Origin: a virus
Lineage: Duplodnaviria > Heunggongvirae > Uroviricota > Caudoviricetes
Reading direction: 5' to 3' (one strand)
IMG/VR virus record: IMGVR_UViG_2563366829_000011
Coordinates: 1-17,320 of that record
Length of the DNA: 17,320 nucleotides
Notes under the pieces: model-generated
Seen by the model: the letters and a program-made list of their open reading frames with translations, nothing else
Told to the model about the DNA's origin: nothing
The model's database searches: none
Part shown: positions 5,264 through 10,227 of the stretch, piece by piece
Layout: every line of letters starts with the position of its first letter
How positions within the stretch are numbered: the stretch's first letter is position 1
Position numbers and translations under genes: made by a program

Positions 5264-5538
5264 CAGATTTCACCTTTTAATTTCATTGCAATTAGAGTTG
5301 CCAGAAATTCGGCTTTTTTTTCTGCGGGCAGATTCTTTCCGATATGCACCAGGCACATTTTTTTGACACCTTCATCAAGTGTTTTTACGTTGCCTGATGG
5401 ACCATCGATATCAACCACAGTGAATGGGGTTTCTTTATTTTCTGTTTTAATTACGTAGCCAATGCGCTTTCCTTCCAGATTCACCTCGTGAACAATGTCA
5501 TCGGTAGTTACAACAGTGGCTTCATAATTGGTAATCAT
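5263..5538 (-). CDS. racC: RacC, 91 aa
   Basis: MITNYEATVVTTDDIVHEVNLEGKRIGYVIKTENKETPFTVVDIDGPSGNVKTLDEGVKKMCLVHIGKNLPAEKKAEFLATLIAMKLKGEI. SD AGGAG precedes the ATG at 5536-5538 (minus). Confidence 0.85.
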   Translation of the reverse strand: MITNYEATVVTTDDIVHEVNLEGKRIGYVIKTENKETPFTVVDIDGPSGNVKTLDEGVKKMCLVHIGKNLPAEKKAEFLATLIAMKLKGEI

Positions 5539-5612
5539 GTTTTTCTCCTTAATTAAGGTTGAGCGAATACCTGCCATTTCTGGCATAAATTCAGTTTCGA
5601 ATAGTCAATTAA

Positions 5613-5783
5613 TTAAAGTTCATGTGCCATCTGGTCTTTTTCGGCACAAGCTTCACTGCAATATTTTCTCGGTTCGTCTTTTGATAAAATCCCGTGCATG
5701 AAGTGAAGCATTCTTTCAATAGCTTTGCTTTCTTCAACGTCTTTTTTGCAAAGGTGGTAAGCACATTTTGTTTTCTTAGTCAT
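5613..5783 (-). CDS. ydaE: YdaE-like small Cys-rich (zinc-binding type) protein, 56 aa
   Basis: Below the ORF-track size cutoff. Minus-strand translation [62 protein letters not shown] upstream; the start overlaps the kilR stop (TGATG). Confidence 0.8.
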   Translation of the reverse strand: MTKKTKCAYHLCKKDVEESKAIERMLHFMHGILSKDEPRKYCSEACAEKDQMAHEL

Positions 5784-6004
5784 CACCATGACTCCGCCTT
5801 TACAGGTAAACCATCACAACCGAGGAAGACTTTAATCATGCGGTCAGTAATGCATGTTTTTGTGGTCAGGTTACGAATATATAGTTTTCGCTTTTTAATA
5901 TTGTTTGCCGAGGCAATATATGTCCGGCCTTCATGAAGAACATAATCGCCAGGAGTCACACACTGACGTGGTATTTCATCAGTTCCGAAGTGATGTGCAA
6001 TCAT
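5783..6004 (-). CDS. kilR: KilR, Rac cell-division inhibitor, 73 aa
   Basis: [79 protein letters not shown] lies 6 nt upstream of the ATG at 6002-6004 (minus); the ORF-track start at 6016 has no SD. Confidence 0.85.
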
Positions 6005-6176
6005 AATTATCTCCATTTTTACAAATGAACTTTGTTGATGCGGTGTCTGGTGCCTCCAGGTGACTGCAACCAGTTAACAATTACAGTCGGCTTTCCCACC
6101 CAAACCAATAAGGACTAACATGACTTTTAACTGTGCCACGTGCGCTTAGCCGCATTCACCGCATCACAAAATTCAC

Positions 6177-6227
6177 TTTAAAAAGGGCGGACATCAGCCG
6201 AACTTCAAGAAAAAAACTGATGCCGCC
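6177..6227 (-). terminator. Candidate intrinsic terminator for leftward transcription upstream of kilR: 11 bp stem with one bulge, 19 nt loop, then U5 on the minus strand
   Basis: Arms GGCGGACATCAG (6186-6197) and CTGATGCCGCC (6217-6227). Minus-strand RNA after the stem reads CUUUUUAAAG. The long loop weakens the call. Confidence 0.3.
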
Positions 6228-6383
6228 AGGACTACACACAGCAATGTCGTTATTTACAACCGGAGGCGCACTCCCACCATTTAAATTTAACAGACAAGAC
6301 CGACTCTTTATGGATATCGGAAATGCGCCTTCGTGTTGTGCCCGGTTTTATTTCACCACCTCCGGGCTTCGGTGGTCTCGGCT

Positions 6384-6430
6384 ATACCCCTACAGCGAGA
6401 GCTTGTGTTAACATTTCAATACCCTTACAG
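6384..6430 (+). promoter_or_regulatory. Direct repeat ATACCC(C/T)TACAG x2 (6384-6395 and 6419-6430) immediately upstream of sieB; possible promoter or operator
   Basis: Seen directly, 11 of 12 identical, 35 bp apart, ending 16 bp before the sieB ATG. A TTGTGT -35-like hexamer lies between the copies. Confidence 0.3.
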
Positions 6431-6445
6431 TTGAGAGTTATTGAT

Positions 6446-6934
6446 ATGTTGGATGTATTTACTCCATTGTTGAAACTTTTTGCTAACGAGCCACTCGAAA
6501 GACTTATGTATACGATTATCATTTTTGGTCTCACTCTCTGGCTGATACCGAAAGAGTTTGCTGTCGCATTCAATGCTTATACTGAAATACCCTGGCTCTT
6601 TCAGATTATCGTTTTTGCCTTTTCTTTCGTGGTCGCTATTTCCTTCTCAAGATTGCGAGCACATATTCAAAAGCATTATTCATTGCTACCAGAGCAACGA
6701 GTATTGCTTCGTTTATCTGAGAAAGAAATCGCTGTATTTAAAGATTTCCTTAAAACAGGAAATCTTATTATCACTTCTCCTTGCCGTAACCCGGTTATGA
6801 AAAAATTAGAACGGAAGGGCATCATTCAACATCAGAGTGATAGCGCAAACTGTTCTTATTATCTCGTCACCGAAAAATACTCCCACTTTATGAAGTTATT
6901 CTGGAACAGCAGGAGCAGGCGTTTTAATCGTTAG
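6446..6934 (+). CDS. sieB: SieB superinfection-exclusion protein, 162 aa, predicted membrane protein
   Basis: MLDVFTPLLKLFANEPLERLMYTIIIFGLTLWLIPKEFAVAFNAYTEIPWLFQIIVFAFSFVVAISFS... with hydrophobic segments. SD GAGAG lies upstream of the ATG at 6446. The ORF-track start at 6323 was rejected. Confidence 0.85.
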   Translation: MLDVFTPLLKLFANEPLERLMYTIIIFGLTLWLIPKEFAVAFNAYTEIPWLFQIIVFAFSFVVAISFSRLRAHIQKHYSLLPEQRVLLRLSEKEIAVFKDFLKTGNLIITSPCRNPVMKKLERKGIIQHQSDSANCSYYLVTEKYSHFMKLFWNSRSRRFNR

Positions 6935-7086
6935 CTTACTGTGTGCTTCTCCAACCATCGTCGTGCGCCAGCTTCGGTTTTAAACGTTTTGCTTTTGGTA
7001 TACGTCATGGCAGTGAACGTTCCATCCTGGTTGGGGAACACGCCGCACACCAGGGATTCGTTATTGCCGAGGTCGATTTTTTGCAT
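6931..7086 (-). CDS. ydaF: YdaF-like small protein, 51 aa
   Basis: Below the ORF-track cutoff. Minus-strand translation MQKIDLGNNESLVCGVFPNQDGTFTAMTYTKSKTFKTEAGARRWLEKHTVS. SD GAGGTG upstream. Confidence 0.75.
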   Translation of the reverse strand: MQKIDLGNNESLVCGVFPNQDGTFTAMTYTKSKTFKTEAGARRWLEKHTVS

Positions 7087-7096
7087 TTTTCGCACC

Positions 7097-7231
7097 TCAC
7101 ATCTTGTTGTTGCGGATAGAGGCTTCTGCCTGCCAGAGATCCCAGTCGTTGCTGCGTAGAGCCTGTACAGCCTGGCTGTAAGTGATATCGCAACAATCCA
7201 TCAAATACTGAACTACTTCGTAATGCACCAT
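7097..7231 (-). CDS. ydaG: YdaG-like small protein, 44 aa
   Basis: MVHYEVVQYLMDCCDITYSQAVQALRSNDWDLWQAEASIRNNKM. SD GGGGAGAG lies upstream of the ATG at 7229-7231 (minus). Confidence 0.75.
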   Translation of the reverse strand: MVHYEVVQYLMDCCDITYSQAVQALRSNDWDLWQAEASIRNNKM

Positions 7232-7404
7232 CTTATCTCTCCCCTTAACGCCGGGTGGCGGAACTGAAACCTGCTGCACTGCAAAATCTGAACCCTGCCG
7301 TCATGTTCATACGCCTCGGGCTGGCTACTTAACCCCTGACCACTGCCTGGTAACTCGAAGTATTGCCCTGCGTTCTGTGGGGCGGGGTGGGTTGGTAGGT
7401 ATAT

Positions 7405-7446
7405 GATGTACTTTGTGTTCATTGATGTAAAGTACTTTAAGTACAT
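7405..7446. promoter_or_regulatory. Operator-like cluster downstream of racR and upstream of ydaG: ATGTACT at 7406, AAGTACT at 7430 (24 bp later), and a 13 bp palindrome GTACTTTAAGTAC at 7432-7444
   Basis: Seen directly. The same ATGTACT 7-mer pair with 24 bp spacing recurs in the racR-ydaS spacer. The position corresponds to the pL/oL region of a lambdoid immunity region (inference). Confidence 0.4.
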
Positions 7447-7521
7447 TTTGTGTGTAAAAAAATGAGATGGGATAAAGTGAAGCACAAACCCGGAGGGGGG
7501 AGCTACCGGATTTATGCTGGT

Positions 7522-7941
7522 TTAAGAGGCTTTTTGTTTTTTCTTTCGTGCTAACTCTTCGTAAATTGCATTGTACTTCTGTTTTTTCTCCTCAAGAGTT
7601 TTTAAAAGTTCATCTGTCTCACTGTCAGGGAGCTCGTCCAGAAGGTCAATGATGATTTTTTGTCTTGGATTTAACTCCTGATAGAAACGTACCTGTCCAC
7701 TTTCTTCTGTATCCTCTCCCAAAAGATAGGTTGGTGTTGTTCCAATGAGTGTTGCTAATTCCCTTAATTTCTCTCGGCGAGGAATTGTTTCGCCATTAAA
7801 CCATTTGCTAACCGCTTTTGGTGTTAATTTCATTCGACGGGCAATTTCTGCCTGCCTTCCATGTTGTTCATAACCAGCGTTTTCACAGGCTAGCGCAAGC
7901 CTACTGGCGAACTCTTTACGCGCTTTATCTTCATGAACCAT
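7522..7941 (-). CDS. racR: RacR prophage repressor (HTH, cI-like), 139 aa in this frame
   Basis: MVHEDKARKEFASRLALACENAGYEQHGRQAEIARRMKLTPKAVSKWFNGETIPRREKLRELATLIGTTPTYLLGEDTEE... An HTH lies in the N-terminal half. Divergent from ydaS. Confidence 0.9.
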   Translation of the reverse strand: MVHEDKARKEFASRLALACENAGYEQHGRQAEIARRMKLTPKAVSKWFNGETIPRREKLRELATLIGTTPTYLLGEDTEESGQVRFYQELNPRQKIIIDLLDELPDSETDELLKTLEEKKQKYNAIYEELARKKKQKAS

Positions 7942-8020
7942 AAGTTCAATGATATTCGCTCTTGAATGTACTGTCAGTTCTGTTATACCATGTACTCAAA
8001 GTTCACATTGTGAGGGTGAT
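7942..8020. promoter_or_regulatory. racR-ydaS divergent promoter/operator region with two ATGTACT motifs (7966-7972, 7990-7996) 24 bp apart
   Basis: Predicted minus-strand promoter CTGACA (7972-7977), 17 bp spacer, TATCAT (7949-7954), ending 7 nt before the racR ATG. Predicted plus-strand promoter TTGAAT (7962-7967), 16 bp spacer, TATACC (7984-7989) toward ydaS. SD GAGGG precedes ydaS. Hexamers identified by eye. Confidence 0.5.
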
Positions 8021-8275
8021 ATGAACCAGAAAACACTTGAAGATGTAATCAAAACTGTTCGCGTTTCTGTTGTGGCCGACGTTTGTGGTGTCAGCCAAAG
8101 AGCAATCTACAAATGGATGGATAACGGAAAATTGCCTCGCACAGAATATACCGGCGAAACAAATTACGCTGAAAAAATCGCTCATGCATCAAACGGATTA
8201 TTTTCTGCCGATGTAATTTTAACTATTGGCAGAAATAAAACTACTACGAAAAAGCTGATGGGAGTTGATTCATGA
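8021..8275 (+). CDS. ydaS: YdaS (Cro/HTH-like small protein), 84 aa from the SD-supported start
   Basis: MNQKTLEDVIKTVRVSVVADVCGVSQRAIYKWMDNGKLPRTEYTGETNYAEKIAHASNGLFSADVILTIGRNKTTTKKLMGVDS. SD GAGGG lies 7 nt upstream of the ATG at 8021. The upstream in-frame ATG at 7949 lacks an SD and lies in the operator region. Confidence 0.8.
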   Translation: MNQKTLEDVIKTVRVSVVADVCGVSQRAIYKWMDNGKLPRTEYTGETNYAEKIAHASNGLFSADVILTIGRNKTTTKKLMGVDS

Positions 8276-8694
8276 AAATCAAGCATGAGCACATCGAGTC
8301 AGTGTTGTTAGCCCTGGCAGCCGAAAAAGGGCAGGCATGGGTAGCCAATGCCATTACTGAAGAATATCTGCGCCAGGGGGGCGGCGAATTGCCCCTGGTA
8401 CCAGGCAAGGACTGGAATAATCAGCAGAACATCTATCACCGTTGGTTAAAAGGTGAAACGGAAGCGCAAAGGGAAAAAATTCAGAAACTGATCCCTGCAA
8501 TTCTGGCAATCCTTCCGCGCGAGCTGCGTCACCGACTCTGCATCTTCGATACCCTGGAACGCCGTGCATTACTGGCGGCGCAGGAAGCGTTAAGTACGGC
8601 AATTGATGCGCATGATGATGCAGTCCAGGCCGTTTACCGGAAAGCGCATTTCAGCGGCGGCGGGTCTTCCGACGATTCTGTCATTGTTCATTAA
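8272..8694 (+). CDS. ydaT: YdaT, 140 aa
   Basis: MKIKHEHIESVLLALAAEKGQAWVANAITEEYLRQGGGELPLVPGKDWNNQQNIYHRWLKGETEAQREKIQKLIPAILAILPRELRHRLCIFDTLERR... The start overlaps the ydaS stop (ATGA). Confidence 0.85.
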   Translation: MKIKHEHIESVLLALAAEKGQAWVANAITEEYLRQGGGELPLVPGKDWNNQQNIYHRWLKGETEAQREKIQKLIPAILAILPRELRHRLCIFDTLERRALLAAQEALSTAIDAHDDAVQAVYRKAHFSGGGSSDDSVIVH

Positions 8695-8706
8695 GCAAAA
8701 GTTTCC

Positions 8707-8917
8707 ATGCTGTTTGTGCTTATTCTAAGCAACCGGGCAGCATCATACGGGGCAATTATGGCCGCATTACCATACATGCAACTGTACATAGCTGATTATC
8801 TGGCTGACACCATGCATTTGTCAGCAGAGGAGCATGGTGCGTATTTGTTGCTGATGTTCAATTACTGGCAAACAGGAAAGCCAATACCTAAAAACAGGCT
8901 GGCAAAAATTGCCCGTC
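8707..8917 (+). pseudogene. ydaU: YdaU-like (DUF1376-type) gene, 5' fragment only, interrupted by IS629 at 8918
   Basis: ...[52 protein letters not shown] then continues into IS629-derived codons. The true start may be the ATG at 8758. Confidence 0.65.
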
Positions 8918-8971
8918 TGAACCGCCCCGGGAATCCTGGAGACTAAACTTCCTGAGAAAGAGGTAAACAGG

Positions 8972-9298
8972 ATGACTAAAAATACTCGTTTTTCCCCCGA
9001 AGTCCGTCAACGGGCAGTCCGTATGGTTCTGGAAAGTCAGAGCGAATATGACTCACAATGGGCGACAATTTGTTCCATTGCTCCAAAGATTGGCTGTACG
9101 CCGGAGACTCTGCGTGTCTGGGTTCGCCAGCATGAGCGGGATACCGGGGGCGGTGATGGAGGGCTCACCACCGCTGAACGTCAGCGTCTGAAAGAGCTGG
9201 AACGTGAAAATCGTGAACTGCGCCGCAGTAACGATATCCTTCGCCAGGCTTCCGCTTATTTTGCGAAGGCGGAGTTCGACCGCCTCTGGAAAAAATGA
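8972..9298 (+). CDS. IS629 transposase OrfA (HTH), 108 aa
   Basis: [61 protein letters not shown]... recognised as IS629/IS3-family OrfA. Confidence 0.9.
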
Positions 9299-10185
9299 TG
9301 CCACTGCTGGATAAGCTGCGTGAGCAGTACGGGGTCGGACCGCTATGCAGCGAACTGCATATTGCCCCGTCAACGTATTACCACTGTCAGCAACAGCGAC
9401 ATCATCCGGATAAACGCAGTGCCCGTGCGCAGCTCGATGACTGGCTGAAGAAAGAGATACAGCGCGTATACGATGAAAATCACAAGGTATACGGTGTGCG
9501 TAAAGTCTGGCGTCAGTTGTTACGGGAAGGTATCAGAGTGGCCAGATGCACTGTGGCACGTCTCATGGCGGTTATGGGACTTGCCGGTGTTCTCCGGGGT
9601 AAAAAGGTCCGTACGACCATCAGCCGGAAAGCCGTTGCCGCAGGCGACCGCGTAAACCGTCAGTTCGTGGCAGAACGACCTGACCAGCTGTGGGTGGCTG
9701 ATTTTACTTACGTCAGCACATGGCGGGGCTTCGTCTATGTGGCGTTCATCATTGATGTGTTTGCCGGATACATCGTGGGGTGGCGGGTCTCATCGTCCAT
9801 GGAAACGACATTCGTGCTGGATGCACTGGAGCAGGCGTTATGGGCCCGTCGACCGTCCGGCACGGTCCATCACAGTGATAAAGGTTCTCAGTATGTATCG
9901 CTGGCCTACACACAGCGGCTTAAGGAAGCCGGATTACTGGCATCAACAGGAAGTACAGGCGACTCGTATGACAACGCGATGGCGGAGAGCATCAATGGTC
10001 TTTACAAAGCGGAGGTAATACACCGTAAGAGCTGGAAAAACCGTGCAGAAGTGGAACTGGCCACACTCACGTGGGTGGACTGGTATAACAATCGACGATT
10101 GCTGGAAAGGCTGGGCCATACTCCTCCGGCAGAAGCAGAAAAAGCTTATTATGCTTCCATCGGAAACGATGATCTGGCAGCCTGA
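9295..10185 (+). CDS. IS629 transposase OrfB (DDE/RNase H-fold catalytic domain), 296 aa
   Basis: [37 protein letters not shown]...[34 protein letters not shown]...[10 protein letters not shown]...[15 protein letters not shown], a typical IS3-family integrase core. Confidence 0.9.
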
Positions 10186-10227
10186 GTTCACAGATAAAAC
10201 ACTCTCCAGGAAACCCGGGGCGGTTCA

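Follow-up and report, generated by a model that had tools for sequence, protein, structure and literature searches.

A putative HK022-type immunity switch with a predicted leaderless repressor promoter in a Rac-like prophage

Several repressor genes of lambdoid phages and prophages are expressed from promoters placed directly in front of the start codon. The cI gene of lambda is the classic leaderless case (cited in PMC9638921 and PMC8630535). In E. coli K-12, primer extension and −10 mutagenesis showed the racR promoter PracR3 to be both leaderless and indispensable for promoter strength (PMC9638921). For paaR2 of CP-933P (E. coli O157:H7), 5′ RACE together with N-terminal sequencing of PaaR2 likewise revealed a leaderless gene (PMC8630535). 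In the related phages 933W and BAA2326, the repressor is reported both to activate PRM and, via OR3, to repress it (PMC5977221). For HK022, the GenBank record of the immunity region (X16093, covering cI, cro, oR1-3, oL, pL and pR; also HK75) annotates 15-bp repressor sites. A direct statement of leaderless expression for HK022 or 933W was not found in the literature.

The window (the whole stretch of 17,320 nt that was analysed, from IMG/VR record IMGVR_UViG_2563366829_000011) contains a short spacer between divergent genes for a repressor and a Cro-like protein. This spacer is likely to be the OR of an HK022-type lambdoid immunity switch, which has been swapped into a Rac-like prophage as a cassette and includes a leaderless promoter for the repressor gene. 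The genes and boundaries of the region are as follows.

7398–8265 (868 bp, no strand): swapped immunity cassette (OL/pL, repressor, OR, cro), delimited by blastn
7522–7941, minus strand: repressor gene, an ORF of 139 aa with its ATG at 7941–7939
7942–8020 (79 bp), between the minus-strand repressor ORF and the plus-strand cro-like ORF: the spacer, from the sequence
8012–8016, plus strand: Shine-Dalgarno GAGGG of the cro-like gene, from the sequence, contrasting with the repressor ATG
8021–8275, plus strand: cro-like gene, an ORF of 84 aa, 62% identical to HK022 Cro (E 2e-34)
8265–8282, plus strand: YdaT box TTGATTCATGAAAATCAA, 0 mismatches, at the cro stop and ydaT start and also at the right edge of the cassette
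8272–8694, plus strand: ydaT, an ORF directly 3′ of the cro-like gene

By blastn, the identity of the window to K-12 Rac is 98% over 5501–7397 (kilR to ydaG) and 97.4% over 8266–8920 (ydaT and ydaU), and the YdaT of the window is 98% identical to that of K-12. The interval between these matches, 7398–8265, has no K-12 match in the same comparison, and corresponds in position to the ydaG–ydaT interval of the Rac prophage. HK022 DNA matches here with 70% identity over 7781–8191 and 82% over 7402–7462. The HK022-type homology and the lack of a K-12 match, flanked on both sides by near-identical Rac sequence, identify the locus, as judged from these alignments, as a classical immunity-cassette swap that has placed an HK022-type OL-cI-OR-cro module in a Rac backbone. 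Of 5426 complete E. coli genomes, 1047 (about a fifth) carry the cassette region (at least 80% of 7380–8300), and a scan of genome contigs returned one locus, a Shigella flexneri copy. There were no Rfam matches in or near the spacer, and a terminator scan of 7200–8800 gave none.

The starts of both the repressor and the cro-like gene agree with the RefSeq annotation in the best-matching genome. An alternative start codon for the repressor was considered and rejected, as there is no in-frame start upstream of 7941. The next in-frame ATG is codon 37, which lies inside the HTH, and the MV(H/Q) N-terminus is conserved.

The repressor has a Pfam HTH_3 domain (1.8e-9), and over aa 4–102 its DNA-binding domain shares 47% identity with that of HK022 CI (E 6e-32), with a near-identical recognition-helix stretch (TPKAVSKWFNG and TPKAISKWFNG). 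A search of solved structures gave the HTH domain of P22 C2 only. Escherichia phage Tritos has an annotated CI that is 100% identical to the window repressor. No paper on Tritos was found in the literature. Both the repressor and the cro-like protein are labelled in the databases only as 'helix-turn-helix domain-containing protein'. HK022 CI (235 aa, translated from the annotated CDS) carries a LexA/S24 self-cleavage domain, lambda CI has a cleavable C-terminal domain, and the S24 C-terminal domain is also present in the repressors of the Klebsiella and Citrobacter relatives. In contrast, the 139-aa window repressor has no Pfam match to Peptidase_S24, its alignment to HK022 CI stops at aa 102, and its 59-aa C-terminal part matches phrog_5736, a phage family of short regulators. 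Since the S24 domain is missing, induction by RecA-stimulated cleavage would be unlikely. The S24-type C-terminal domain also mediates cooperativity in lambda and HK022 CI, so that for a repressor without it, cooperative filling of OR1 and OR2 and looping between OL and OR are conjectural.

The repressor-binding unit is predicted to be a 15-bp imperfect palindrome, TGAACTnnnAGTACA, read on the repressor strand. Five candidate operators and a leftward promoter were located with it.

7403–7431, minus strand (read 7431 to 7403): pL-like promoter TTTACA-17-CATCAT, 9/12 in the consensus scan, pointing at ydaG/ydaF
7407–7421, minus strand: OL1, TGAACACAAAGTACA, a pattern match in the pL spacer, aligned with an annotated HK022 oL site
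7431–7445, minus strand: OL2, TGTACTTAAAGTACT, a pattern match just upstream of the pL −35, aligned with an annotated HK022 oL site
7934–7948, minus strand: OR3, TGAACTTATGGTTCA, 0 mismatches, covering the pRM +1 and the start codon, with its dyad centre at A7941
7967–7981, minus strand: OR2, AGAACTGACAGTACA, 1 mismatch, overlapping the pRM −35 and lying in the pR spacer
7991–8005, minus strand: OR1, TGAACTTTGAGTACA, 0 mismatches, covering the predicted pR start

Searching with the pattern TGAACTNNNRGTWCA at up to 2 mismatches gave 16 strand-hits in the window compared to an expected 4.08 ± 2.37, a number reached by none of 200 shuffles, and ten of the 16 are the five OR and OL sites. The heptamer ATGTACT had been proposed in the sequence-only reading as the motif bound by the repressor. 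It occurs four times (7966–7972, 7990–7996 and 7406–7412 on the plus strand, and 7440–7446 on the minus strand), compared to 1.27 expected, with 7 of 200 shuffles reaching four. The copies at 7966 and 7990 are present as described and overlap the lytic promoter, but the 7-mer is not the binding unit: it corresponds to a single half-site (AGTACA, seen on the plus strand) with one adjoining base, and every copy lies inside a 15-bp palindromic site resembling the HK022 operators. OR3, the autorepression site, and the OL/pL set were both missing from that reading; OR3 was overlooked because it has GTTCA halves. Its placement over the repressor promoter is what autoregulation calls for, as far as sequence alone can tell, with binding predicted. 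Beyond the repressor gene, at 7403–7445, the second operator set and leftward promoter are arranged as expected of a lambdoid switch. A counterpart of the third HK022 OL site was not found at up to 2 mismatches.

The operators correspond closely to those annotated in HK022, and the two share an operator consensus. HK022 oR3 (TGAACTTATGGTTCA) is identical to OR3 of the window and both are centred on the repressor ATG. HK022 oR2 is GGAACTGATAGTACA, compared to AGAACTGACAGTACA in the window and in the same register, while oR1 of HK022 has the sequence TGAACTTATGGTTCA and OR1 of the window TGAACTTTGAGTACA. The centres of OR1 and OR2 are 24 bp apart, as are those of OL1 and OL2, and this spacing is also that of HK022, as are the layout and both hexamers (TTTACA and CATCAT) of pL. 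The two systems differ downstream of cro, where HK022 has cII and the window, with its Rac backbone, has ydaT. The likeness to lambda is one of plan: divergent pRM and pR, three operators, a leaderless repressor mRNA (predicted in the window), an OR3-type autorepression site and a second set of operators at pL. The operators themselves are unrelated, being 17 bp in lambda and 15 bp in the window; OR3 of the window is centred on the +1 and ATG rather than on the promoter core as in lambda, and its OR2 overlaps the −35 more deeply.

The predicted promoter of the repressor gene (pRM-like) has the following elements.

7972–7977, minus strand (read 7977 to 7972): −35 CTGACA, from the consensus scan, inside OR2
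7949–7954, minus strand (read 7954 to 7949): −10 TATCAT, from the consensus scan, ending 7 nt before the ATG
7941, minus strand: predicted transcription start A7941, the 8th nt after the −10 and preceded by T

The minus strand thus reads CTGACA, a 17-nt spacer, TATCAT, TGAACTT (7948–7942) and ATG. This promoter, already recognised in the sequence-only reading, can be read directly from the sequence and scores 10/12 consensus matches in the promoter scan. Promoter-like sites of at least 9/12 are not enriched in the region (two, compared to 2.4 expected from shuffles). Those of at least 10/12 are rarer, with 0.34 expected per 1.6 kb by first-order Markov simulation, and one would end 6–8 nt in front of any given ATG with a chance of about 3e-4. 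Neither hexamer varies among the 81 copies of the allele. The same reading had likened the gene to lambda cI transcribed from pRM, with essentially no leader or Shine-Dalgarno, and this is supported: there is no Shine-Dalgarno within 18 nt of the repressor ATG, and the geometry recurs in relatives (below).

E. coli RNA polymerase preferentially starts 7–8 nt after the −10, at a purine that follows a pyrimidine. With the −10 ending 7 nt before the ATG, initiation would be expected at the A of the AUG or 1 nt before it, and the promoter is probably placed for a leaderless or 1-nt-leader repressor mRNA, by analogy with lambda cI from pRM. The gap in lambda is 6 nt, compared to 7 nt in the window. 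The commonest start position is the 7th nt after the −10, which with a 7-nt gap is T7942, giving a possible 1-nt leader; such a leader weakens leaderless translation. In a minimum-energy fold, the first 20 nt of the predicted repressor mRNA are unpaired, which lends weak support to a leaderless design. Another hexamer, GAATAT, ends 10 nt before the ATG, and was rejected as the main −10 element because it has no usable −35 partner at 16–18 bp.

The leaderless design was examined by comparison with related phages. Annotated phages (HK022, HK75, phi24B, Salmonella S9-5 and SI8, Klebsiella 2b and Citrobacter Omnitron) were compared together with IMG/VR prophages, which were collected using the N-terminal domains of the window, Klebsiella and HK022 repressors as seeds. 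Upstream regions were anchored on the repressor ATG, giving 76 distinct haplotypes, among which 19 representatives differ by more than 6 mismatches. The stretch from OR1 to the ATG is free of indels in 75 of the 76; in the exception (L297), one nucleotide is inserted downstream of the −10 and before the ATG. In 75/76 haplotypes and 18/19 representatives, the distance from the end of a TAnnnT hexamer to the ATG is exactly 7 nt, and the hexamers include TATGAT, TATAGT, TATGCT, TATTAT, TATCAT, TACTAT and TAGTAT; in HK022, the order is TATAGT, TGAACTT and ATG, matching the geometry of the window. Columns 1, 2, 3 and 6 of the hexamer show near-maximal conservation, while columns 4 and 5 and the 12 nt upstream are poorly conserved. 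This pattern is the one expected of a −10 element, and the hexamer lies outside all three operators. The −35 partner, CTGA(C/T/A)A, lies inside OR2 and is 17 bp away in every case; the family variants at this position are CTGATA, CTGAAA and CTGACA, and the window allele is the best version. A pyrimidine precedes the A of the ATG in 71 of 76 haplotypes, which fits the known start preference of RNA polymerase.

The divergent, pR-like promoter is less clear in its −10 element, for which there are two readings.

7962–7967, plus strand: −35 TTGAAT, from the sequence, at the position of the annotated HK022 pR −35 (TTGACT)
7981–7991, plus strand: −10 area TGTTATACCAT, read as TATACC or TACCAT
7984–7989, plus strand: first reading of the −10, TATACC, with a 16-bp spacer and a TG at 7981–7982 (extended −10)
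7986–7991, plus strand: second reading of the −10, TACCAT, with an 18-bp spacer, 2 nt downstream of TATACC

This promoter had been described as TTGAAT-16-TATACC. Both elements are present in the sequence and the −35 is borne out, being unchanged in 81/81 copies of the allele, but the −10 fares less well. TATACC was not called by the consensus scan because it lacks T at hexamer position 6. It lies at the offset of the annotated HK022 −10, CATAAT, and TACCAT lies at the offset of TAATAT, the form found in the family. Among the 19 representatives, TAnnnT occurs on the cro strand at the 18-bp spacer offset in 16, and A2/T6 at the CATAAT offset in 13. In the 81 copies of the allele, the hexamer with the 18-bp spacer has T6 in all and A2 in 76, compared to T6 in only one for the 16-bp spacer; its forms are TAGCAT (70/81), TAGAGT, TAGTGT, TAACAT, TAGCGT, TGGCAT and TGGCGT. 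Because A2 and T6 are conserved both in the family and in the population of the allele, TACCAT is the likelier −10 of pR, and TATACC is probably 2 nt off. Positions 7986–7990 are the sole polymorphic patch of the spacer among the allele copies, and the C at 7988 of the window (a G to C change) is absent from all 81 other copies. Under either reading, the −10 is weak, the start would fall inside OR1 and OR2 would lie in the spacer, so that repression by occupancy would follow.

The other described systems resemble the window in layout rather than in components. The Rac prophage of K-12 has its module in the same slot, with a leaderless repressor promoter (predicted in the window), a strong divergent promoter from which the cro-like gene and ydaT are transcribed, an operator over the start codon of the repressor gene and pairs of operators on the far side of that gene. 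It differs in its repressor and cro-like proteins, in its TAGGC-n3-GCCTA operators, in having three mapped racR promoters and in the length of the racR-ydaS spacer (123 bp, compared to 79 bp). The paaR2/ydaS locus likewise has ydaS-ydaT under a divergent PR, a non-LexA repressor, and a PL whose operators lie on the far side of the repressor operon, but its palindromes are of the type GTTTAGTAA, its repressor gene is co-transcribed with a toxin-antitoxin pair and its spacer is 97 bp. The 933W and phi24B repressors are homologous to that of the window at the N-terminus (MVQNEK...), and in these phages OR3 lies over the ATG and TAGTAT ends 7 nt before it. The half-sites, however, are of the GTAC/TGAACTGAAAGTTTT types, and the repressor is full-length with an S24 domain. 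In HK022, the pR −10 (CATAAT/TAATAT) differs from that of the window (TATACC/TACCAT).

The sequence-only reading had taken the two divergent genes for racR and ydaS. A location between ydaG and ydaT of the Rac prophage would suit a K-12-type RacR/YdaS module, as would the excess of ATGTACT if the 7-bp repeats were themselves the repressor sites, but the palindromes around every copy speak against this, and the proteins do not bear out the names. The repressor matches K-12 RacR in only a 12/33-aa stretch of the HTH; the cro-like protein has a 6/18-aa match to K-12 YdaS (E 0.028) and no Pfam match to YdaS_toxin (PF15943), for which K-12 YdaS scores 2.6e-31. A motif search for the K-12 RacR operator found none in the spacer, compared to six sites around K-12 racR. 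By these comparisons, orthology of the repressor to K-12 RacR is refuted, the module is HK022-like, and it is very improbable that the locus works as a RacR/YdaS module. It is just as hard to credit that the hexamers have arisen by chance from the AT-rich spacer and the operator sequences and are devoid of promoter activity. Sites of at least 9/12 are as frequent as in shuffles, and the operator alone could account for the conservation of the −35, which lies inside OR2. The −10, however, is outside every operator and keeps TAnnnT at a fixed 7-nt offset while its neighbours vary, the positional coincidence is itself improbable (above), and the repressor gene needs a promoter, for which the scan detected no other candidate.

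A third explanation is that the repressor is made mainly from leadered transcripts starting further upstream, with CTGACA/TATCAT contributing little. The source could be a reverse promoter activated by YdaT and located within the cro-like gene or past it (an analogue of lambda pRE or K-12 PracR4), or extra spacer promoters like PracR1 and PracR2. K-12 provides the precedent, with its three racR spacer promoters and a YdaT-activated reverse promoter in ydaS (PMC9638921; PMC11879457), and the window has both a YdaT nearly identical to that of K-12 and a perfect YdaT box at 8265–8282, the sole one found in the window by a motif search (motif from PMC9986795 and PMC11879457). The hexamer GAATAT, with its A2/T6, adds another possible start, and TATTAT or TAATAT occupies its position in 50/76 haplotypes. 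Yet this 10-nt-gap hexamer has no usable −35, the consensus scan found no other minus-strand promoter in the spacer or the cro-like gene, and leadered transcripts would be poorly translated since there is no Shine-Dalgarno near the ATG. In K-12, moreover, it is the leaderless promoter on which promoter strength depends. Leadered transcription is also compatible with a functional pRM, as lambda uses both routes. That it should be the main source of repressor is unlikely, and the leaderless pRM-like promoter is the preferred reading.

In the proposed mechanism, CTGACA-17-TATCAT would fire leftward to give a repressor mRNA without a leader or Shine-Dalgarno, translated as a leaderless message like that of lambda cI. 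Repressor dimers at OR1 and OR2 would block pR, and thereby cro-ydaT and the replication genes, while repressor at OL1 and OL2 would block pL (ydaG, ydaF, kilR and onward). As OR2 overlaps the pRM −35 region, repressor bound there may stimulate pRM. The centre of OR2, however, is at about −33 relative to A7941, closer to pRM than is OR2 in lambda, so bound repressor might hinder rather than help. At high levels, repressor would occupy OR3, centred on the pRM +1 and ATG, and shut off its own gene. That repressor occupancy would silence the rightward operon and might autoregulate the repressor gene had been anticipated in the sequence-only reading, and is what OR1, OR2 and OR3 would lead one to expect by analogy with known switches. 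The core of this scheme (leaderless promoter, operator-covered lytic promoter, repression and autoregulation) appears well supported by comparison with relatives; what we infer beyond it are the actual 5′ end, how strong the promoters are, in which order the operators are filled, and any activating role of OR2.

Leaderless repressor genes are already known in lambda cI, K-12 racR and paaR2, and the window carries a textbook lambdoid switch with no new mechanism. Its value lies in correcting how a prophage locus that is very common in E. coli is labelled, since under the names racR and ydaS it would mistakenly be credited with the operator and cross-talk data of K-12. It also provides exact coordinates for the predicted pRM, pR and pL and for five operators in a widespread allele that is present in the sequenced phage Tritos as well, and a conserved comparative case, in which a 7-nt gap between −10 and ATG is maintained across HK022, 933W-type, Klebsiella, Salmonella and Citrobacter phages. 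More tentatively, a repressor with the operator specificity of HK022 and no self-cleavage domain, if the cassette encodes one, might give the host permanent, SOS-insensitive immunity to phages of HK022 immunity, with the Rac-like prophage locked by its leaderless, self-limiting pRM, and the substitutions in the pR −10, including the private G to C change, could represent attenuation of the lytic promoter during domestication.

The swapped cassette has its left edge just outside a complete pL/OL-like region, and K-12-like sequence is found again at 7397, close to the predicted start of transcripts from pL. The right-hand mosaic junction coincides exactly with a perfect YdaT box.

7403–7445: predicted pL/OL-like region, complete, with the promoter TTTACA-17-CATCAT and a pair of 15-bp operators at 24-bp spacing
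8265–8282: perfect YdaT box, TTGATTCATGAAAATCAA, lying across the cro stop and the ydaT start

By analogy with K-12, the YdaT box may serve a pRE-like reverse promoter; a consensus scan of the spacer and the cro-like gene found no such promoter to accompany it.

The DNA-binding domain of the window repressor is HK022-like by sequence, but the protein lacks a LexA/S24 self-cleavage domain; the C-terminal 59 aa (aa 81–139, window 7522–7701) match phrog_5736. The repressors of the Klebsiella and Citrobacter phage relatives are 236–251 aa long and carry an S24 domain.

When the spacer was compared with 81 other copies of the same allele, variation was confined to a single polymorphic patch, 7986–7990, which lies within the −10 area of pR, the predicted rightward cro promoter. 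C7988 is private to the window, which reads TATACCAT in place of TATAGCAT. Variation in this patch, including the private C7988, could have arisen by drift or could serve to attenuate the lytic promoter.

Elsewhere in the Rac-like prophage, ydaU is interrupted by an IS3-family element (window ~8921–10200), and K-12 homology ends at 8920. The Rfam match to the RalA sRNA indicates that the window carries Rac's type I toxin-antitoxin pair, RalR/RalA.

1331–1509: RalA antitoxin sRNA (Rfam, 225 bits)
8972–9298 and 9295–10185: two ORFs of the IS3-family element
9253–9369: ALIL frameshift pseudoknot (Rfam match), within the IS3-family element

In the phage Tritos record, Cro is annotated as a long ORF of 108 aa (L003 2167–2493; window 7949–8275), the start of which falls within the operator region. 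The RefSeq start at 8021, giving 84 aa, has a Shine-Dalgarno sequence and aligns to the N-terminus of HK022 Cro. Among the relatives, those from Klebsiella and Citrobacter phages (L007 1189–1203; L008 1156–1203) have TATGAT as the −10 hexamer of pRM, the predicted repressor promoter; this hexamer includes an in-frame ATG, so that the longest repressor ORF starts further upstream (MIEHMVHEE...). Longest-ORF callers would place pRM of these phages within coding sequence, hiding the promoter.
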